Assembly (NCBI GenBank): GCA_039589315.1
Contig: JBDHHQ010000023.1
Coordinates: 1 to 54,974 of the forward strand
Length of the DNA stretch: 54,974 nt
Direction: 5' to 3'
Origin: Gemmatimonadota bacterium
GTDB taxonomy: Bacteria; Gemmatimonadota; Gemmatimonadetes; Longimicrobiales; Gaopeijiaceae
Part shown: positions 26,709 through 33,645 of the stretch, in pieces
Numbering within the stretch: the stretch's first letter is position 1
Layout: each line of letters starts with the position of its first letter
Position numbers and translations under genes: made by a program
Notes under the pieces: model-generated
The model's database searches: none
What the model saw: only the letters and a program-made list of their open reading frames with translations
What the model was told of the DNA's origin: nothing

Positions 26709-27206
26709 CTACCCGCCGCCCATGCTGGCATGAAGCCGTTTGAGCATCTGGATCTGCCCAGCGTGGTAGGTGTCGTGCAAAACGACGCCCATGAAGAGAT
26801 CGGCGTAGGTGTAGCCGCCCCGGCCCCCGGAAGGCTCGTCGAGGCGGCCGGGATCGAAATCGGCCATGACGTCCCGAAGGAGCGTGTGGTACCGGCGGAG
26901 CACCCGCCGGTCTTGCTTCCACGCGTCGGGGGTGATCGCGTCCGGCAACGCGGGCCAATTCGACGGCCTGCGGGGAAACCCGCCCCGCGCCTCCCCGCTC
27001 ACTCTGCGCCAGATCGCGTAGTTCCAGTAGGCCACGTGCAGAGTCAGGGCCCAGATGCTGTGGCGGTCCGGCGCCGGCCGCCAAGCGGCCGCTTCTGGCT
27101 TCACGCCCCGGACCGCGCCCAGCGCGCTGGCGCCTCCGTGCCACATCTTGGTTCCGGCTGGAGGGTCGAAGTGGGCCAACGCCATCTCGAGTCTACGGTC
27201 TTCCAT
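26709..27206 (-). CDS. DinB/YfiT family protein
   Basis: AAWRP...HSIWALTLHVAYW, HDTYHAGQI. Confidence 0.9.
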   Translation of the reverse strand: MEDRRLEMALAHFDPPAGTKMWHGGASALGAVRGVKPEAAAWRPAPDRHSIWALTLHVAYWNYAIWRRVSGEARGGFPRRPSNWPALPDAITPDAWKQDRRVLRRYHTLLRDVMADFDPGRLDEPSGGRGGYTYADLFMGVVLHDTYHAGQIQMLKRLHASMGGG

Positions 27207-27452
27207 GTCGTCTCGTCCCTAGGGAGGGAGCTTCCGTCCTAGTGCGGCCAGCCCCAGCGTCCTCGCCCCTCATTCCGTTCGCACCGTCCCATCGGATACG
27301 GACGCGCCGAGCCTGCAACCCAACCTCTCGCGTCTGACGACCGACCGGCACATGACGCAAAGAACGCCATGCTGGACGGGATCTCTGACGCCAATCATAA
27401 TGAGGGGCATGACTGTTCCCGCTCCCAACTCCGAGGGCCCCAACTCCCTCAC

Positions 27453-28820
27453 ATGACCGACGAATTCGACTGGGAGGAGCTCCTCCTCTTCATCGAGGAT
27501 CGCGACGTCGTCCCAGTCGTCGGCCGAGAGCTCCTGACCATTTCGGACAACGGCACGACCAATCTGGTCGACTCGTTCCTGGCCGCCAGCCTGGCAGAAG
27601 AGCTTCGCGTCGACCGCGATGGACTTGGCTCCGCGCCCGACTTGAACGCAGTCGCTGCACAGTACATACGGGGCGGTGGGCCGCGGGCCAAGGTCTACTC
27701 CAAGCTCAGAGCGATCATGGGCCGCTCCGATTTCGCGGTTCCGGAGCCGCTGATGAAGCTCGCGGAGATCACCGACTTCGACCTCTACGTCAGCACGACC
27801 TTCGACTCCCTGATGGCCCAGGCCCTCGACAACGTCCGTTTCGGAGGAGACCCCGGAACACGAACGCTATCATACTCGCCCCACCGACAGGTCGTCGACT
27901 TGCCGATCGAGCTGGAACACCTGGGCGGGCCTCACGTCTATCAGATCTTCGGACCGCTGTCTTCGTCCCCCGAATACGCCGTCACGGACGAGGACCATCT
28001 GGAGTTCCTCCACCGCCTGCAATCCGAGCTCCATCGTCCCAAGCTTCTCTTCGACGAATTCCGCCACTATCACCTGCTCTTCCTCGGCTGTGGGTACCCG
28101 GATTGGCTCACCCGGTTCTTCGTGCGAACGCTTTCCAACGACCGACTGGGTTCCCGGGAGACCTCTGAGAAGATCGCCGACCGACGTGCGGTGGGAGAGG
28201 TCAACCTCTCCATGTTCCTGAGAGACTGTCGAATCGAGGTCTTTCCGGAGGGCGGAGCGGTCGAGTTCATCGATCAGCTCCACGACCGTTGGACGGAACG
28301 TCACCCGCATCAGGCCTCGGAGACGGCTCCCACCTCGAGGCCGGCCGCCGCGAGCCCCAAGATGGTCCCCGGCTCGATTTTCCTGAGCTACGCCAGCGAG
28401 GATCAGGAGCTGGTCGATTCATGGCGCGCGGCCCTCGAGGATGCGCATCTGGACGTCTGGTTCGACAAGCAAGACCTTCAGCCAGGCGATGCCTGGGACT
28501 TGATGATCAAGTCGAATATCCGGCGGTGTGACTTGTTCATGCCGTTCGTCTCTAGGCGCTCTCAATCCCGACGGGAGGGATACTTCCGCCGTGAATGGCG
28601 GTGGGCCCTCGACCGGGCCGAGGCCATGGCAGAGAGCCTTCCGTTCATCGTGCCCGTCATCCTCGATGAGACCCAGCAGGGCGCGGAGAACATCCCAGCG
28701 GGATTCTGGCGCAATCAGGCAATCAGGGCGCTGGGCGGCCGTCCCACGGACGAGGTCGTCGTGAGCATCAAGCAGACGCTGGAGCGCGTGCGGAGCCCGG
28801 AGGCGGCGAGGGACGCATGA
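27453..28820 (+). CDS. SIR2-like (SIR2_2-type) domain fused to a C-terminal TIR domain
   Basis: VVPVVG, YVSTTFDSL, YQIFG, LLFLGCGYPDW (SIR2-like); IFLSYASED, VWFDK..L.PGD.W, FMPFVS, YFRREWRWA, IVPVILD (TIR). Confidence 0.85.
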   Translation: MTDEFDWEELLLFIEDRDVVPVVGRELLTISDNGTTNLVDSFLAASLAEELRVDRDGLGSAPDLNAVAAQYIRGGGPRAKVYSKLRAIMGRSDFAVPEPLMKLAEITDFDLYVSTTFDSLMAQALDNVRFGGDPGTRTLSYSPHRQVVDLPIELEHLGGPHVYQIFGPLSSSPEYAVTDEDHLEFLHRLQSELHRPKLLFDEFRHYHLLFLGCGYPDWLTRFFVRTLSNDRLGSRETSEKIADRRAVGEVNLSMFLRDCRIEVFPEGGAVEFIDQLHDRWTERHPHQASETAPTSRPAAASPKMVPGSIFLSYASEDQELVDSWRAALEDAHLDVWFDKQDLQPGDAWDLMIKSNIRRCDLFMPFVSRRSQSRREGYFRREWRWALDRAEAMAESLPFIVPVILDETQQGAENIPAGFWRNQAIRALGGRPTDEVVVSIKQTLERVRSPEAARDA

Positions 28821-31800
28821 CCGGGTCGAGCCACTCACCCCCCGACCAGGCCCTCGAGACCAACAATCCCTACGCGGGCCTCAAGGCCTTCAGCGAACAG
28901 GACAGCCAGTTCTTCCACGGTCGGGAACGCGAGACCGAGGCGCTCTACAGAGCGGTACGCGGCTCCACCGTCACCGTGCTCTTCGGTGCATCCGGTCTGG
29001 GCAAGACATCGCTGATGGCAGCCGGCCTGTTTCCCCGTCTCCGCCGCCAGCTCTTCTTTCCGGTCTTGGTTCGCGTTGGGTACGACGGTGGATCACTCGG
29101 GGCCCAACTGAGGGAGCGCCTGTCCGAAGAGGCCAAGAGACACGGTGTGAAGGCTCCCCTCTGGCCAGGCGGGCAGACGATGTGGGAGTACTTCCACCGG
29201 GCCAAGTTCTGGAACCGCCGCACTCGTCTTCTGACACCCGTGCTGGTTCTGGACCAGTTCGAGGAGGCGTTCACGCTGGGTCGCGACCGAGCTGACACGG
29301 ATGAGCTGCTCGAGGAGCTCGGTGACCTCATCGAGAATCGCATCCCGGCGTCGCTTCAGGAGGCTATGGCGCTCGGCGACGGCGACATCCCCGCCGGATT
29401 CGAACGTCAGGACTACCGCGTGCTCCTCGCTCTTCGAGAGGACTTCCTTCCTGAGCTCCAGGAGCTTCAGGAGCGCATCCCGGCCCTTGCTCTGACCCGC
29501 GTTCGCCTGACTCGAATGAACGGCAGCCAGGCCCGGGAGGCGGTCTTGCGGCCGGCCTCCGACATCGTTTCAGAGGAGGTCGCGGAGGGCATCGTGCGGT
29601 TCGTGGCCCACGCTGGGGATCGAGGCGAGGGCGGGCCGAACGCAGTCGCGCTCGACCCGGAGAGGATGGAGGTCGAGCCGGCCTTGCTGAGCCTCTTCTG
29701 CCGAGAGCTCAATGAGCTCCGGAGACAGGCACGCTCGCCGACGATCTCCGCCGACCTTCTGGATCGACAGGGCGAGCGGATCATCGAGGGGTTCTACGAG
29801 CGATGCGTCTCCGACGAGCATCGGGCTGTGCGGTCGTTCATCGAGGATCGTTTGATCACGGCATCAGGCCACCGAACGGCCCAGGCCCTCGAGGACGCCG
29901 TAGGGACACCGGGCGTCACGGCGGCATCGATCGAGCGACTCGTCGACCGTCGGCTCCTCCGGCGTGAGGATCGCCTGGGTATTCCCCACGTCGAGCTCAT
30001 ACACGACCGACTCACCGACGTCGTTCTCGAGAGCCGCCAGCGCCGGCTGGCGCGCGAGGAGCAGCGAAGACGTACAGCACGAGCGCGGTTGTTGGGGGGC
30101 GTCGGCGTGCTCGCGCTCCTCGTCTCGCTGGGCGTTTTCAAGGTCGCAGCCGATCTCCGGAGGCAGGCCGAAGAGGTTCGAGCGTTTTCGATCCTCACAC
30201 AGGCTCCCACGATCGACGATCCCCTGACAGCCGCCCTTCTTCTCCGGGAGGTGGCCGAGATGCCTTCGGAGCGAGTCGTCGATCCGGTGGGGGCGGTCCG
30301 GGCAGCCCGCGCAGCACTCGGTCCATGGTATTGGCCCCAATCGATCTTGGTCGGACACGACAACGAGGTGCGGGACGTGGCGTTCAGCCACGATGGAACC
30401 AGGATCCTCACAGCATCGTTCGACGGGACGGCCCGGATCTGGAACGCCGACGGCTCCGGCGAGCCGATAGTCCTCGCTGAGCACGTGGACGCGGTGCGCA
30501 CGGCACGGTTCAGTCCCGATGGATCGTCGGTTCTCACCGCCTCACTCGATGGATCCGTGCGGCTCTGGGACGCCGATGGGTTCATATTGGACACCCTCGC
30601 GGGTGCCGCGGGGCTTCCGGGCGTGGGCGTTCTGGACGTGAAGTTCGGGCCGCGGGGCAGACTGGCTGCAGTAGCCTTCGATGATGGGAAAGCGGCAGTG
30701 TGGGACATGGTCGCGGACTCGACCCGCCTGTTCATTCCTAGGCCGTTCACCCGGGGGAACACGTGGGGTGTGGCCTTCGACGCTGAAGGGAGGAGGGTCG
30801 CCACGGCTTCGGCGGCTCGCGGGAATGGATCCTGGATCTACGACCTGGCCGGAGCCGACCCCGTCCGTCTGGAACACCCTCAAGGGGTCTTCGCCGTCGC
30901 GTTCGGTCCACGCGGCGGCTTCCTCGCAACGGCCTCCGCGGATGGCCACGCTCGCTTGTGGAACTTGGACGGTTCGCTGGAGAGGCAGTTCGCGCCTCCA
31001 CACGCTGGCAGCGCCCGGGCAATCAGCTTCGACGGTGCGGGTGAACGGATCGTGACCGCGTCCGTGGATCGTACCGCTCGAATCTGGAGGGTGGACGGCC
31101 AGGACTCGCGCGTCCTTGCAGGGCATACGGGTTCTGTGTGGACGGCCAAGTTCAGTCCCGACGGCCGATGGATCCTCACGACCTCGGACGATCACACCGC
31201 AGCCTTGTGGGATACCAGCGATTCAACCTCCACCAGCTACCTGCGGGGGCATCGGGCCCGAGTTCGGGCCGGTGCTTTCAGTCCCGACGGCAGCCTGATC
31301 GTGACGGGCTCCTCGGACGGATCCGCTCGGGTGTGGCGTCGGCAAGCTCGGCCGCTGGTGGACCGGGAGAGCAGATTCCTGACGGTCGCCATGAGCCCCG
31401 ACGGACAGCTCGTGGGCGCGGGGGCCGACGACGGAACGGTCCGCGTGTGGCCGATCGAGGGTGGCGATCCTCGGACCTCGACCCAGCACGGCGCGCGGGT
31501 CCTTCGCGTACGATTCGGACCGTCAGGCCAGCGCCTTGTCTCCGTATCCCGCGATTCCACCGCCCGGATCCTGGAGATGGACGACCCCGAAGCCATGGTG
31601 ATCCTTCCGCATCGTGCGGTGGTCCTGGACGCCTTTCTCGCCCACGATGACTCAACCGCCCTGACGCTTTCGGCGGATAGCATCGCCCGATTGTGGGGCC
31701 CGAATCACCCCGACACCGGCCGTGTGCTCGAGGGTTCGGGCCGCATCGCCGCAGTCGCCCTGCGCGGCGAACGTGTGTTCAGCGCCACCGGCCGTTCGGT

Positions 31801-32632
31801 CGCCGTTTCGAACCTCGATGGGGTGGTCGAAGTCGTCTTGCAGGGGGGATTCGAGACCGACCCCGACGTCCGGTCACGGCGTGATTCTGCGCTGGTACTT
31901 GTCGGTGGCCGGGACGGTATCCCCGGCGGGCATCTGGGCCCGATCGAGTCGCTCCACGCGAACCGCGTCGGCTCACATGTCGTGACGGTCTCCTCCGACA
32001 ATACCGCAAGGGTTTGGAGGGTAGATACGCCGAGCGAGCCACTGCTCGTAATCGAAGGAAGACGCGACGGGCACCGGATGGGGTTCGCCAGAGCTCCAGG
32101 GGAACCCGCGAGCGACACCGTGTTCCCCATTCCCGGCCATCGCGCGCCCATTCTTGCGGCATCGTTCAGCCCTGACGGGCAAACGCTCCTGACTGCCTCG
32201 GCCGACTCCACGGCAAGGCTCTGGGACTTGGAACGGGGGCAGGCCGTCCGCGTGCTCCGGGGAGACGCACCGATGATGAGCGCCGAGTTCAGCCTCGATG
32301 GAAGGCGAATCCTGACCTCCGACAGTAACGGCACGATCCGCGTCTGGGACGCGTCCCGACCTGGCGCTCCCGTCGACATCACGGATGGCGCTGTTGGGCC
32401 GGGTAATGCCGCTCTGAGTCTCGATGGATCGATTCTCGCATCGGCTAGCCGAGAAGGGCGTGCACGGCTGTCGTGGGTCTCGTGGCACTTCTACCGGGAA
32501 CTCCTACGCGAGTCTGTTCAGGCATGCCTCTCGGCAGAGGACCGTGTCCGGTACCTCGCGGAATCGAACCGCACGGCGAGGCGCGAGGAAGAAGATTGCC
32601 GGCGAAGGCTCCGCGACGGAGGCCTCGACTGA
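28817..32632 (+). CDS. nSTAND1-type STAND NTPase with a hydrophobic segment and many WD40 repeats
   Basis: NPYAGLKAF...FFHGRERE, Walker A GASGLGKTS, Walker B VLVLDQFEE, LALREDF, ELIHD; repeated GH...V..AFSPDG..ILTAS.D.TARIW units; ATGA overlap with the upstream gene. Confidence 0.92.
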   Translation: MTGSSHSPPDQALETNNPYAGLKAFSEQDSQFFHGRERETEALYRAVRGSTVTVLFGASGLGKTSLMAAGLFPRLRRQLFFPVLVRVGYDGGSLGAQLRERLSEEAKRHGVKAPLWPGGQTMWEYFHRAKFWNRRTRLLTPVLVLDQFEEAFTLGRDRADTDELLEELGDLIENRIPASLQEAMALGDGDIPAGFERQDYRVLLALREDFLPELQELQERIPALALTRVRLTRMNGSQAREAVLRPASDIVSEEVAEGIVRFVAHAGDRGEGGPNAVALDPERMEVEPALLSLFCRELNELRRQARSPTISADLLDRQGERIIEGFYERCVSDEHRAVRSFIEDRLITASGHRTAQALEDAVGTPGVTAASIERLVDRRLLRREDRLGIPHVELIHDRLTDVVLESRQRRLAREEQRRRTARARLLGGVGVLALLVSLGVFKVAADLRRQAEEVRAFSILTQAPTIDDPLTAALLLREVAEMPSERVVDPVGAVRAARAALGPWYWPQSILVGHDNEVRDVAFSHDGTRILTASFDGTARIWNADGSGEPIVLAEHVDAVRTARFSPDGSSVLTASLDGSVRLWDADGFILDTLAGAAGLPGVGVLDVKFGPRGRLAAVAFDDGKAAVWDMVADSTRLFIPRPFTRGNTWGVAFDAEGRRVATASAARGNGSWIYDLAGADPVRLEHPQGVFAVAFGPRGGFLATASADGHARLWNLDGSLERQFAPPHAGSARAISFDGAGERIVTASVDRTARIWRVDGQDSRVLAGHTGSVWTAKFSPDGRWILTTSDDHTAALWDTSDSTSTSYLRGHRARVRAGAFSPDGSLIVTGSSDGSARVWRRQARPLVDRESRFLTVAMSPDGQLVGAGADDGTVRVWPIEGGDPRTSTQHGARVLRVRFGPSGQRLVSVSRDSTARILEMDDPEAMVILPHRAVVLDAFLAHDDSTALTLSADSIARLWGPNHPDTGRVLEGSGRIAAVALRGERVFSATGRSVAVSNLDGVVEVVLQGGFETDPDVRSRRDSALVLVGGRDGIPGGHLGPIESLHANRVGSHVVTVSSDNTARVWRVDTPSEPLLVIEGRRDGHRMGFARAPGEPASDTVFPIPGHRAPILAASFSPDGQTLLTASADSTARLWDLERGQAVRVLRGDAPMMSAEFSLDGRRILTSDSNGTIRVWDASRPGAPVDITDGAVGPGNAALSLDGSILASASREGRARLSWVSWHFYRELLRESVQACLSAEDRVRYLAESNRTARREEEDCRRRLRDGGLD

Positions 32633-32789
32633 CCCCTGGCGGGTCATGGAGGCAAGTCCCAATCGCGTTCCTTGCGCGCTTCATAGGTTCCGGCGAATAG
32701 TGTCAGTGATCTCGGTCGGGATCCCCCCGTCCCTCCGTGCTCCGCCGCGGAACCGCCGTCGGCCCGCACCTAGCTCCTGGAGTGACGTG

Positions 32790-33569
32790 ATGAGCACCTC
32801 AATTCGTGATCGACGCAGTGCGCCACCGTCCCTGACCGCGTGCGCCACCGCAGTCCTTGCGATCGTCGCGCTACCCCCGGCCGTGGCGGGTCAGCAGTAT
32901 CTGAGTTGCGAATGGGACACGACTTTGGGGGCGTATCGCGTCGGGGGGCTCGACGGATCCTATCCGCTCGAAGTGAATGGCGAAGCATTTCAGTTCGATT
33001 GCCAGGTGGTCCTCACCAGCTTCACCCTGAAGATGGTCTTCCAGCCCCGTGGCGTGGACGATGGGGTCTTCCTCGCCAAGCGGTACTCTTACAGTAACTC
33101 GTACGATGACGACGATTTCTCCTTCGCCATGGGCCATATCGACGGCCAGGTAGCCGTCCTCGCCCGGGGAATCGAAGCCCTCGACAGCTATTCGACCAGT
33201 GACGCCCAGGTGTTGGGTCTCGTCTTCGAGCCAGACCGGCTCACGGTCTATCGAGATGGTCAGGAGCTCTTCTCCCAGGACTACGGCTACCTGTCCGGGG
33301 ACCTCGGCGACGGTCCGTGGTATCTCGGGGCCATCCCCGGGATGGACGCAGAGGATGCTCCACCGTTCTGGGGATGGGTGGACGAGTTGATCCTCAAGCC
33401 ATCGGCGGACACCCAATTGGCGATGGAGGGGATCGGCGTGGATGATCCCGATATGCGGCGGGCGCCGCCGGTCCCCGACTGCGAATGCGTTTCGTCGGCC
33501 CCGCTCATCGGTTGCTTAGACTGGGAGCCGGACGGATGTGGCGGTGACCCCTTGCTTCACGAGGAGTGA
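32790..33569 (+). CDS. Secreted LamG/concanavalin-A-like domain protein
   Basis: Signal-like leader; LTVYRDG, WYLGA, FWGWVDEL jelly-roll motifs; Cys-rich acidic tail. Confidence 0.6.
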   Translation: MSTSIRDRRSAPPSLTACATAVLAIVALPPAVAGQQYLSCEWDTTLGAYRVGGLDGSYPLEVNGEAFQFDCQVVLTSFTLKMVFQPRGVDDGVFLAKRYSYSNSYDDDDFSFAMGHIDGQVAVLARGIEALDSYSTSDAQVLGLVFEPDRLTVYRDGQELFSQDYGYLSGDLGDGPWYLGAIPGMDAEDAPPFWGWVDELILKPSADTQLAMEGIGVDDPDMRRAPPVPDCECVSSAPLIGCLDWEPDGCGGDPLLHEE

Positions 33570-33645
33570 GCGGTGGCCGGACGGTCGTCCACAGGTTGAC
33601 GGCTTCGCTTCCGCGACGGGGCAGTCGCTGAGGTCCCCTCCGCCC

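Follow-up and report, generated by a model that had tools for sequence, protein, structure and literature searches.

A contig of 54,974 nucleotides from a Gemmatimonadota bacterium (GenBank assembly GCA_039589315.1, contig JBDHHQ010000023.1; this whole stretch is the window below) carries two overlapping genes that form a real, conserved and apparently unnamed pair. Gene 1 (27453–28820) encodes a protein of 455 residues, in which a SIR2-like domain that has lost its catalytic residues is followed by a flexible linker and a TIR domain, as seen from the open reading frame (ORF), Pfam and a structure model. Gene 2 (28817–32632) encodes a protein of 1271 residues, for which ORF, Pfam, hydropathy and a repeat hidden Markov model (HMM) gave an nSTAND1 NTPase, a basic coiled segment, a predicted membrane helix, WD40 propellers and a C-terminal pair of cysteines (Cys1237 and Cys1261). 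Unless said otherwise, the features placed below are on the forward strand. We give an even chance to the reading that the pair is a two-component NLR-like transmembrane switch, in which the dead sirtuin would dock the TIR domain on a transmembrane STAND receptor. A preliminary description, made from the letters of the window and its ORFs, had proposed a split NLR-like pair with an effector supplied in trans; the present results support this arrangement and assign a different part to the SIR2-like domain.

Loss of sirtuin catalytic residues beside a conserved TIR domain

Pfam assigned residues 111–233 of the gene 1 product to SIR2_2 (36.5 bits, cut-off 24.5 bits) and residues 309–408 to TIR_2 (72.6 bits, cut-off 28 bits). 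The predicted structure (predicted local distance difference test, pLDDT, 89) has a SIR2 Rossmann fold, and by structure match and alignment the pseudo-sirtuin domain covers residues ~5–283 (27465–28301). Its model matched KomC (Z 18.6, root-mean-square deviation, rmsd, 3.8, 247 residues aligned), SeThsA (Z 18.2), EfAvs5 (Z 16.1), FAM118B (Z 13.8) and SAMD9 (Z 11.1). A phmmer search of the domain against the PDB gave nothing meaningful, and a profile was needed to reach SeThsA, the closest solved sequence (E 0.043).

The motifs for NADase activity (cleavage of nicotinamide adenine dinucleotide, NAD+) in sirtuins are GAGxS, TTNxD and HG, as given in part of the Avs5 study (PMC12931631). In gene 1, Thr116 stands at the catalytic Asn, Phe166 stands at the catalytic His, and the GAGxS loop is gone; when the SIR2 profile was aligned on SeThsA, Thr fell on the Asn and Leu or Phe on the His. 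We then tallied 278 non-identical family members, of which 276, 277 and 267 could be scored at the Asn, His and TIR Glu columns, respectively. The catalytic Asn was present in 2/276 and the His in 0/277, and the phosphate-binding loop GAGxS was replaced by G-[PAKR]-[ED]-L. Matches to the SIR2 profile gave Asn in 6/142 and His in 0/141. Judged from these residues, the SIR2-like domain is a pseudo-enzyme. Thus, the preliminary description was right to name a SIR2-like domain, which has the Pfam match and the sirtuin fold, and the second NADase effector that it implied is not supported, because the family has lost all three motifs.

Meanwhile, the TIR domain (residues ~306–448, 28368–28796, from Pfam, structure match and alignment) has kept its Glu, as described before. 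This residue, Glu381 (codon 28593–28595), is conserved in 267/267 family members and aligns with the Glu of the TIR-APAZ structure 8j8h, which we take to be catalytic. The domain also matched the TIR of SARM1 (Z 13.4). Because the SIR2-like domain has lost its catalytic residues, the TIR is likely the only enzyme of gene 1. The mean frequency of the top residue was 0.63 in the SIR2 domain, 0.63 in the TIR and 0.37 in the linker; the SIR2-like domain is as conserved as the TIR and is therefore under selection. The gene 1 product has no hydrophobic span (maximum Kyte–Doolittle value 1.05).

At least 554 relatives of similar length were found, and the best 120 of them were nearly all annotated with SIR2_2 and TIR_2. 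A SIR2-only profile reached 1020 cluster representatives at E < 1e-30. Longer, fused forms of gene 1 numbered 0/2652 candidates, which is weak evidence, and a later profile search gave one such protein, P0238.

Conservation of the pair

Related loci were the best 80 of 617 genome matches and the best 80 of 530 metagenome matches (160 in total), and by record title they came from Beta- and Gammaproteobacteria, Opitutae, Acidobacteriota and others. Twenty of the 160, with gene 1 cut or with fewer than 300 bases downstream, were excluded. In 139 of the 140 testable loci an nSTAND1 gene lies in tandem downstream of gene 1 (137 by script; L023 and L131 by inspection), which agrees with the earlier treatment of the two genes as a unit. 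At the single non-tandem locus, L148, the nSTAND1 gene is convergent. The ATGA stop/start overlap at 28817–28820, noted before and present in the DNA, has the same −4 spacing in 94/140 called partner genes, and it couples the translation of the two genes.

The initial locus scans relied on TIR motifs, and for this reason the SIR2-only profile was added as an unbiased control. Among 400 further genomes from the phylum it had matches in 11 (10 strong and 1 weak), and 10/10 strong matches came with a TIR and a downstream nSTAND1 gene. The profile gave 0 matches in 100 close relatives, and a phage sequence collection gave no match to the pair. Among sequencing runs no RNA data set was listed as holding it, which carries no weight in either direction.

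Some variants of the locus were also observed. L082 and L098 have one SIR2-TIR gene and then two tandem nSTAND1 genes. In L013 (9367–9738), L065, L091 and L111, the two genes of the pair are separated by a small gene for a 23S_rRNA_IVP four-helix bundle, which accounts for gaps of 400–465 bases. The pair is also present in a cultured soil strain, Paraburkholderia caribensis MBA4 (L252, NZ_CP012748.1), with a TPR-S-like gene upstream; the STAND C-terminal domain of this locus is short, belongs to an unknown family and resembles those of L021, L143 and L223.

A predicted membrane-spanning STAND protein without effector

As had been read from the sequence at first, gene 2 has no N-terminal effector, an NPY motif near its start and Walker A and B motifs. 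Its nSTAND1 module (Pfam PF20703, 125 bits, cut-off 27.1 bits) starts at residue 18 and extends to 414 (28868–30058), and therefore only 16–17 residues stand ahead of the NPY motif. The extension before the STAND motif is ≤40 residues in 136/140 partners (median 18), and Pfam matched no EAD in either gene. The Walker motifs are intact, with Walker A at residues 57–64 (28985–29008, by sequence motif) and Walker B at Asp146 and Glu149/150; a regular expression for Walker A matched 138/141 nSTAND1 partners.

A run of 17 uncharged residues (425–441, 30089–30139) behind the NTPase is a predicted single membrane helix by hydropathy and charge. The segment 425–443, the hydrophobic segment pointed out earlier, is the highest Kyte–Doolittle window of the protein (2.22; runner-up 1.5), and 7 Lys/Arg are found in the 15 residues before the helix and 4 after it. 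Among partners long enough to test, 100/102 have a 19-residue window of at least 1.6 after the STAND module. The uncharged run of these helices has a median of 24 residues, and Lys/Arg are more frequent before than after the helix in 94/100 (positive-inside bias). The helix is missing in L120, whose tail matches the SMC_N ATPase, and in the fusion P0238, both with cytoplasmic domains after STAND. On hydropathy, charge counts and domain context, the helix is probably a membrane span.

The WD40 region (30332–32476, from Pfam and the repeat HMM) is the predicted extracytoplasmic sensor. An HMM built from the protein's own repeats found 16 units at residues 506–1220, 12 scoring >20 and 4 weak, which make up two propellers; the first count of roughly 14 was a fair one. 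The C-terminal regions of 110 partners fell into 10 clusters, with 77 regions TPR-like, 23 WD40 and 10 others. A scan of 14 representatives found TPR, Sel1, LRR with C-type lectin, CHASE2, Tll0287 heme, SMC_N and an unknown type in the sensor slot. CHASE2 and the Tll0287 heme domain are extracytoplasmic sensors. The comparative evidence from hydropathy, charge bias and sensor domains favours the extracytoplasmic sensor behind a membrane span that had been suggested conditionally before. Furthermore, periplasmic sensing at a STAND locus was proposed earlier for CLec domains, in the part of that preprint cited here (bioRxiv 10.1101/2023.09.22.558884).

The SIR2 fold as a constant partner

The weak match in the phylum (L201) is a caspase-SIR2 gene that also lacks Asn and His; downstream of it lies an effector-less nSTAND1 gene, and this gene has the helix. 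In its clade of 83 proteins the front domains are caspase, DUF4062, TIR plus caspase or EAD5, and Asn was found in 0/83 and His in 1/83. Linkage of this clade to nSTAND1 was seen at the sole locus that could be checked, L201, and the 400 genomes gave no other locus.

In addition, genome G472 has a stand-alone SIR2 that retains every motif and precedes an effector-less nSTAND1-helix-WD40 gene. When this active SIR2 was used as query, 401 + 301 genomes gave 15 loci; three SIR2-TIR loci counted before were left out, and 12 remained, the query included. An effector-less nSTAND1 follows in 11/12, and the other one is a cis fusion to nSTAND5. Six stand-alone SIR2s retain Asn and His, and five CHAT-fused SIR2s have Phe for His. 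Thus, catalysis is retained where no effector other than SIR2 is available and is lost where a further effector has been joined to it, and the linkage to STAND persists in both cases.

A natural nSTAND1-SIR2-TIR fusion, P0238, was also found. The SIR2 and STAND trees (47 rows) are largely congruent, and the sensors swap within clades. In SAMD9, a non-catalytic SIR2 is an interaction module on STAND, as stated in the sections cited here (PMC13600222).

Further SIR2 architectures were seen without genomic context, namely SIR2-bDLD3-TIR, protein kinase-SIR2 (cut) and a form with an extra N-terminal TIR-like part (P0143, P0128, P0198). Paralogs have expanded in some genomes, with at least seven SIR2-fold copies in G472 (L219–L222, L251), four in G476 and three in G474; the copies in G472 include gene 1 duplicated in tandem ahead of a single STAND gene, the active stand-alone SIR2 and CHAT fusions. 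The genome studied here also has an unrelated split pair with a GTGA overlap (G000:C225; L001 2–1489 and 1486–3189), in which a TIR-led gene of ~495 residues without SIR2 overlaps an nSTAND1 gene that has no effector and carries a hydrophobic helix. This pair suggests that docking modules are of more than one kind.

Relation to known systems

PADLOC (v2.0, dated 2023) matched no named system, an outcome that the preliminary description had named as support for novelty. Gene 1 gave single-domain TIR matches, gene 2 matched the WD40 stretch of HEAT-ARM_XIII, and the STAND region alone matched no family; ThsA profiles gave weak matches to 4/27 SIR2 domains. NCBIfam had no family above cut-off.

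The pair shares with nSTAND1 conflict systems (Kaur 2021, PMC8195603) the NTPase, a variable C-terminal sensor, the TIR/caspase effector pool and effectors that are sometimes on a neighbour gene. However, in the parts of that paper cited here, STAND has an EAD or an effector at its N-terminus and is coupled in trans through homotypic EADs; the pair has neither, and it differs by its dead-sirtuin partner and its membrane helix before the sensor. SIR2 is named once in these parts, for another system, and the main text of Kaur 2020 has no mention of SIR2.

Avs5 (SIR2-STAND-TPR), as described in part of PMC12931631, has in common with the pair a STAND switch, a repeat sensor, a SIR2 fold beside STAND and an NAD+-directed effector, whereas its active SIR2 is in cis to nSTAND3 and its TPR sensor is cytoplasmic. 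No PADLOC Avs profile matched either gene, and no N-terminal effector in cis was found, with P0238 as one reversed fusion. TIR-bearing Avs exist; in Avs2–5 the effector is N-terminal to STAND, and Avs1 has extra genes. SAMD9/SAMD9L also have a non-catalytic SIR2-like domain on a STAND module, protein contacts and a separate effector, but according to the sections of PMC13600222 cited here they are single eukaryotic polypeptides with a tRNase effector in the cytosol, and the structural match is distant (Z 11.1).

Type I Thoeris (ThsB TIR and ThsA SIR2-SLOG), as far as it is covered by the cited part of a 2025 TIR preprint that has 29 putative effector types (bioRxiv 10.64898/2025.12.03.692087), shares TIR, SIR2 and, in 37/160 loci, SLOG. 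In contrast, the SIR2 of the pair is dead and fused to TIR, a STAND receptor senses, and the SLOG, which resembles YpsA, forms part of a fusion with a class III cyclase. Neither the insert that holds the pair nor the genome gave an adjacent gene for a signal-binding effector. STAND/CLec loci diversified by diversity-generating retroelements (DGR) share the proposed periplasmic sensing by a conflict-system sensor; however, in the part of the preprint cited here (bioRxiv 10.1101/2023.09.22.558884) they have CLec sensors, NACHT or EAD8-nSTAND1 and DGR linkage, and no SIR2-like partner (SIR2 occurs 0 times).

Full-text literature searches turned up no account of the pair, a dead-sirtuin adaptor or the link to a SLOG-cyclase, and supplements, source data and subscription papers may list such neighbourhoods. 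To our knowledge, sensing is cytoplasmic in the characterised bacterial STAND defences, and their effector is in cis.

Possible outputs of the TIR domain

A gene with TPR-S, YpsA-like SLOG and class III nucleotide cyclase domains was found in 37/160 loci (such as L095:12649–14532), and in 23/69 of the loci with both 2.2-kb flanks. It is adjacent in 28 loci, as third gene in 19, divergent in 7 and directly upstream in 2. The model of its middle domain (pLDDT 87) matched the YpsA SLOG (Z 18.8, rmsd 2.5, 161 residues aligned). According to the cited part of bioRxiv 10.64898/2025.12.03.692087, type I Thoeris uses SLOG domains to read the ADP-ribose (ADPR) signals made by TIR, and part of PMC9503650 proposes YpsA-like SLOGs as sensors of cyclic ADPR. 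By analogy, the TIR in cyclase-linked loci may produce a signal instead of depleting NAD+. In this genome (95% complete) and in the insert, no such gene was found, and the matches were to the cyclase domain only; for this reason direct NAD+ loss or an unlinked reader is taken as the default here.

Arrays of up to five TIR-helix-TolB-like/TPR genes flank the pair in L013, L018, L022, L052, L065, L069, L091 and L129, mostly in Opitutae. Their TIRs fall into one clade with that of gene 1, and the arrays look like receptor-like single-chain relatives. We considered gene 1 as a MyD88-like adaptor for same-clade TIR-TM-TPR receptors and rejected this as a general role, because tblastn of the gene 1 TIR in its own genome returned only itself; four more distant TIRs were found by Pfam. 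Dozens of TolB-like/TPR modules occur across the genome. Two other TIR loci were read from the sequence. In C17 (L175 5792–8599) a TIR-helix-long tail protein is near a metallo-beta-lactamase-fold-like gene, and in C53 (L177 5803–9569) a TIR gene is beside a solute-binding/K+-channel-like fusion, with a cyclase nearby.

Genomic setting

Gene 1 is divergent from its left neighbour, as described before, and this neighbour is a DinB-family gene (26709–27206). The pair lies in a 6.4-kb accessory insert (27229–33640) between the DinB-family gene and a LytTR response regulator, delimited by blastn blocks that end at 27228 and 33641. In a genome of the same genus (G001, 94% complete) the regulator and the DinB gene are ~110 bp apart and the insert is missing; ~80 bp at the insert position (G001:C40 3882–3962) are unmatched. 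The G+C content of the insert is slightly lower than that of the neighbours, both overall (0.63–0.67 vs 0.65–0.71) and at third positions (0.76–0.80 vs 0.79–0.89). No terminal repeats, integrase or tRNA-like target were noticed at the insert ends, and the repeats found are the WD40 units.

A third gene of the insert (32790–33569, ~259 residues) has a signal-peptide-like N-terminus, and its language-model features (score 0.96, Laminin_G_3 clusters) are ConA/LamG-like. Its product is probably secreted. It has no Pfam match and is absent from the related loci compared; therefore, it is not a core part of the system.

Upstream of gene 1, a weak sigma70-like promoter candidate (27373–27401, motif scan) has 9/12 consensus matches, and such sites number 2 vs 0.5 ± 0.7 in shuffled sequence, which is a weak excess. 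An alternative in-frame ATG stands upstream at 27369, but the start at 27453 is favoured because the sigma70-like site ends at 27401 and because of homolog starts.

Discussion

From the anatomy of the two genes, their pairing and the loss of SIR2 catalysis described above, we infer a topology, a docking mode, an activation route and a function. Gene 2 would very probably sit in the inner membrane, with its ATPase inside and its WD40 propellers in the periplasm. A ligand in the envelope would cluster the propellers and lead to nucleotide exchange and oligomerisation of nSTAND1, by analogy with what is established for the STAND class. The dead SIR2 would probably, with somewhat less assurance than the topology, be the docking module on the N-terminal face of nSTAND1, the place that a fused effector would take. 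A SIR2 NADase that was ancestrally active and worked in trans would have been kept as an adaptor once TIR, CHAT, caspase or DUF4062 was fused. Clustering of the TIRs would then, with high probability, turn on NAD+ cleavage. The output in this genome would most likely be NAD+ loss or an ADPR-type signal that an unlinked receptor would read, and in cyclase-linked loci the product of the TIR may be passed on to the synthesis of cyclic nucleotides. An invader or an assault on the envelope (phage, predator or competitor) is the probable trigger, though with modest confidence.

More tentatively, with clearly less than even confidence, we suggest that membrane-spanning NLR-like receptors of this kind are widespread, sense outside the cytoplasm and recruit swappable effectors in trans via a sirtuin-fold plug. 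The plug would be active as an effector and repeatedly inactivated to an adaptor when TIR, CHAT, caspase or DUF4062 was fused, and in many lineages TIR would make an ADPR-type molecule that acts on a YpsA-SLOG-gated cyclase. Such a cascade from receptor through adaptor to second messenger would join TLR-like sensing of the outside with NLR-like assembly, and in bacteria it would be a counterpart of the dead SIR2 in SAMD9.

Several points weigh against the switch model. Binding, topology, enzyme activity and phage protection are all predictions from sequence or context. The locus counts are not independent, because many loci come from related soil lineages that are abundant in the sample. Tree congruence shows co-inheritance, not binding, and could be explained by the operon alone; STAND is tracked slightly better by SIR2 (Spearman 0.94) than by TIR (0.90), with equal-length SIR2 halves at 0.92, and this excess is small. 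The helix is present in 6/11 partners of the wider SIR2 and nSTAND1 set, and 2 of the 5 without it have broken frames. P0238 is a single sequence without genomic context. The CHASE2 and heme sensors point to chemical rather than invader sensing, and a valyl-tRNA synthetase (ValRS) neighbourhood in 8 loci gives a stable housekeeping setting in some clades. Finally, the enrichment in defence islands that had been named as a check is unsupported so far. In 29 loci with 8-kb flanks (273/300 called ORFs compared with PADLOC), 1/29 was beside a named multi-gene system, a count that rises to at most 5/29 when single-gene candidates are included, with no background set for these counts. The one case is a close relative (L006:1830–6640) that adjoins BREX brxA and brxC (brxC in two pieces); single-gene candidates were matched in L008, L019, L029 and L083, and the remaining loci matched only generic kinase, ABC, methylase or ankyrin families or had no match. 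Eight flanking genes of the window gave only a generic methyltransferase match in PADLOC.

The strongest alternative keeps the same anatomy and makes the pair a receptor for environmental or envelope-state signals unrelated to defence, with a TIR messenger that tunes a SLOG-gated cyclase or other physiology. We hold it to be unlikely, though a serious contender. It fits the 1/29 loci beside defence systems, the CHASE2 and heme sensors, the adjacent cyclase genes with their YpsA-like SLOG and the stable synteny of some clades. However, the effector slot holds TIR, caspase, CHAT, DUF4062 and active SIR2, which are typical conflict effectors in the cited part of PMC8195603; the pair is patchy (11/400 genomes of the phylum), and searches of this genome did not find the cyclase gene. 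A conflict role is favoured by the conflict-type effectors together with the patchy distribution and the expanded paralogs.

It is improbable that the pseudo-SIR2 is mainly a sensor or threshold setter for nucleotides (NAD+ or ADPR-type products) or a self-polymerising scaffold for TIR, with contact to STAND unnecessary. Gly24, Asp118, Gly167, Gly212 and an E-D-x-L-E segment are near-invariant in the SIR2-like domain, its nearest structures are filament-forming SIR2s (KomC, ThsA, Avs5 and FAM118B), and SIR2/SIR2 contacts activate SAMD9, according to the sections of PMC13600222 cited here. Nevertheless, the GAGxS loop has been replaced, and the constant effector-less nSTAND1 neighbour of active or dead SIR2 would be left unexplained. 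Such a role can coexist with docking.

Slightly less probable still is a helix that is buried or a mere anchor, with cytoplasmic propellers that sense phage proteins as in Apaf-1 or Avs. The helix of gene 2 has only 17 uncharged residues, export of an 830-residue tail behind a late signal-anchor would be demanding, and 5/11 partners of the wider family have no helix. Against this stand the longer median run and the charge bias of the partner helices, the periplasm-type domains in the sensor slot and the absence of the helix where a cytoplasmic domain follows. The version implied at first, with SIR2 and TIR both active NADases, has a negligible chance: the Pfam match and the sirtuin fold are in its favour, and the catalytic His is not always needed because PaAvs5 works with NG replacing HG, but the three motifs were lost together, including the Asn that is required for PaAvs5 defence and whose mutation abolishes it (PMC12931631, in the part cited).

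The two-component switch, if true, would mean that a STAND switch is driven across a membrane. With its two genes the pair is a simple test case for the coupling between the non-catalytic SIR2 and STAND in SAMD9-like proteins. The SLOG-cyclase is a candidate new reader of TIR signals. Because sensor and effector both swap naturally, the pair could be a modular chassis for transmembrane signalling, and because a cultured strain, Paraburkholderia caribensis MBA4, carries the pair, the family can be tested. The gene 1 domain would then be a pseudo-enzyme adaptor whose active stand-alone relatives show the route from effector to adaptor, and bacteria would have reused an old immune effector as a plug-in adaptor for swappable sensors and effectors.

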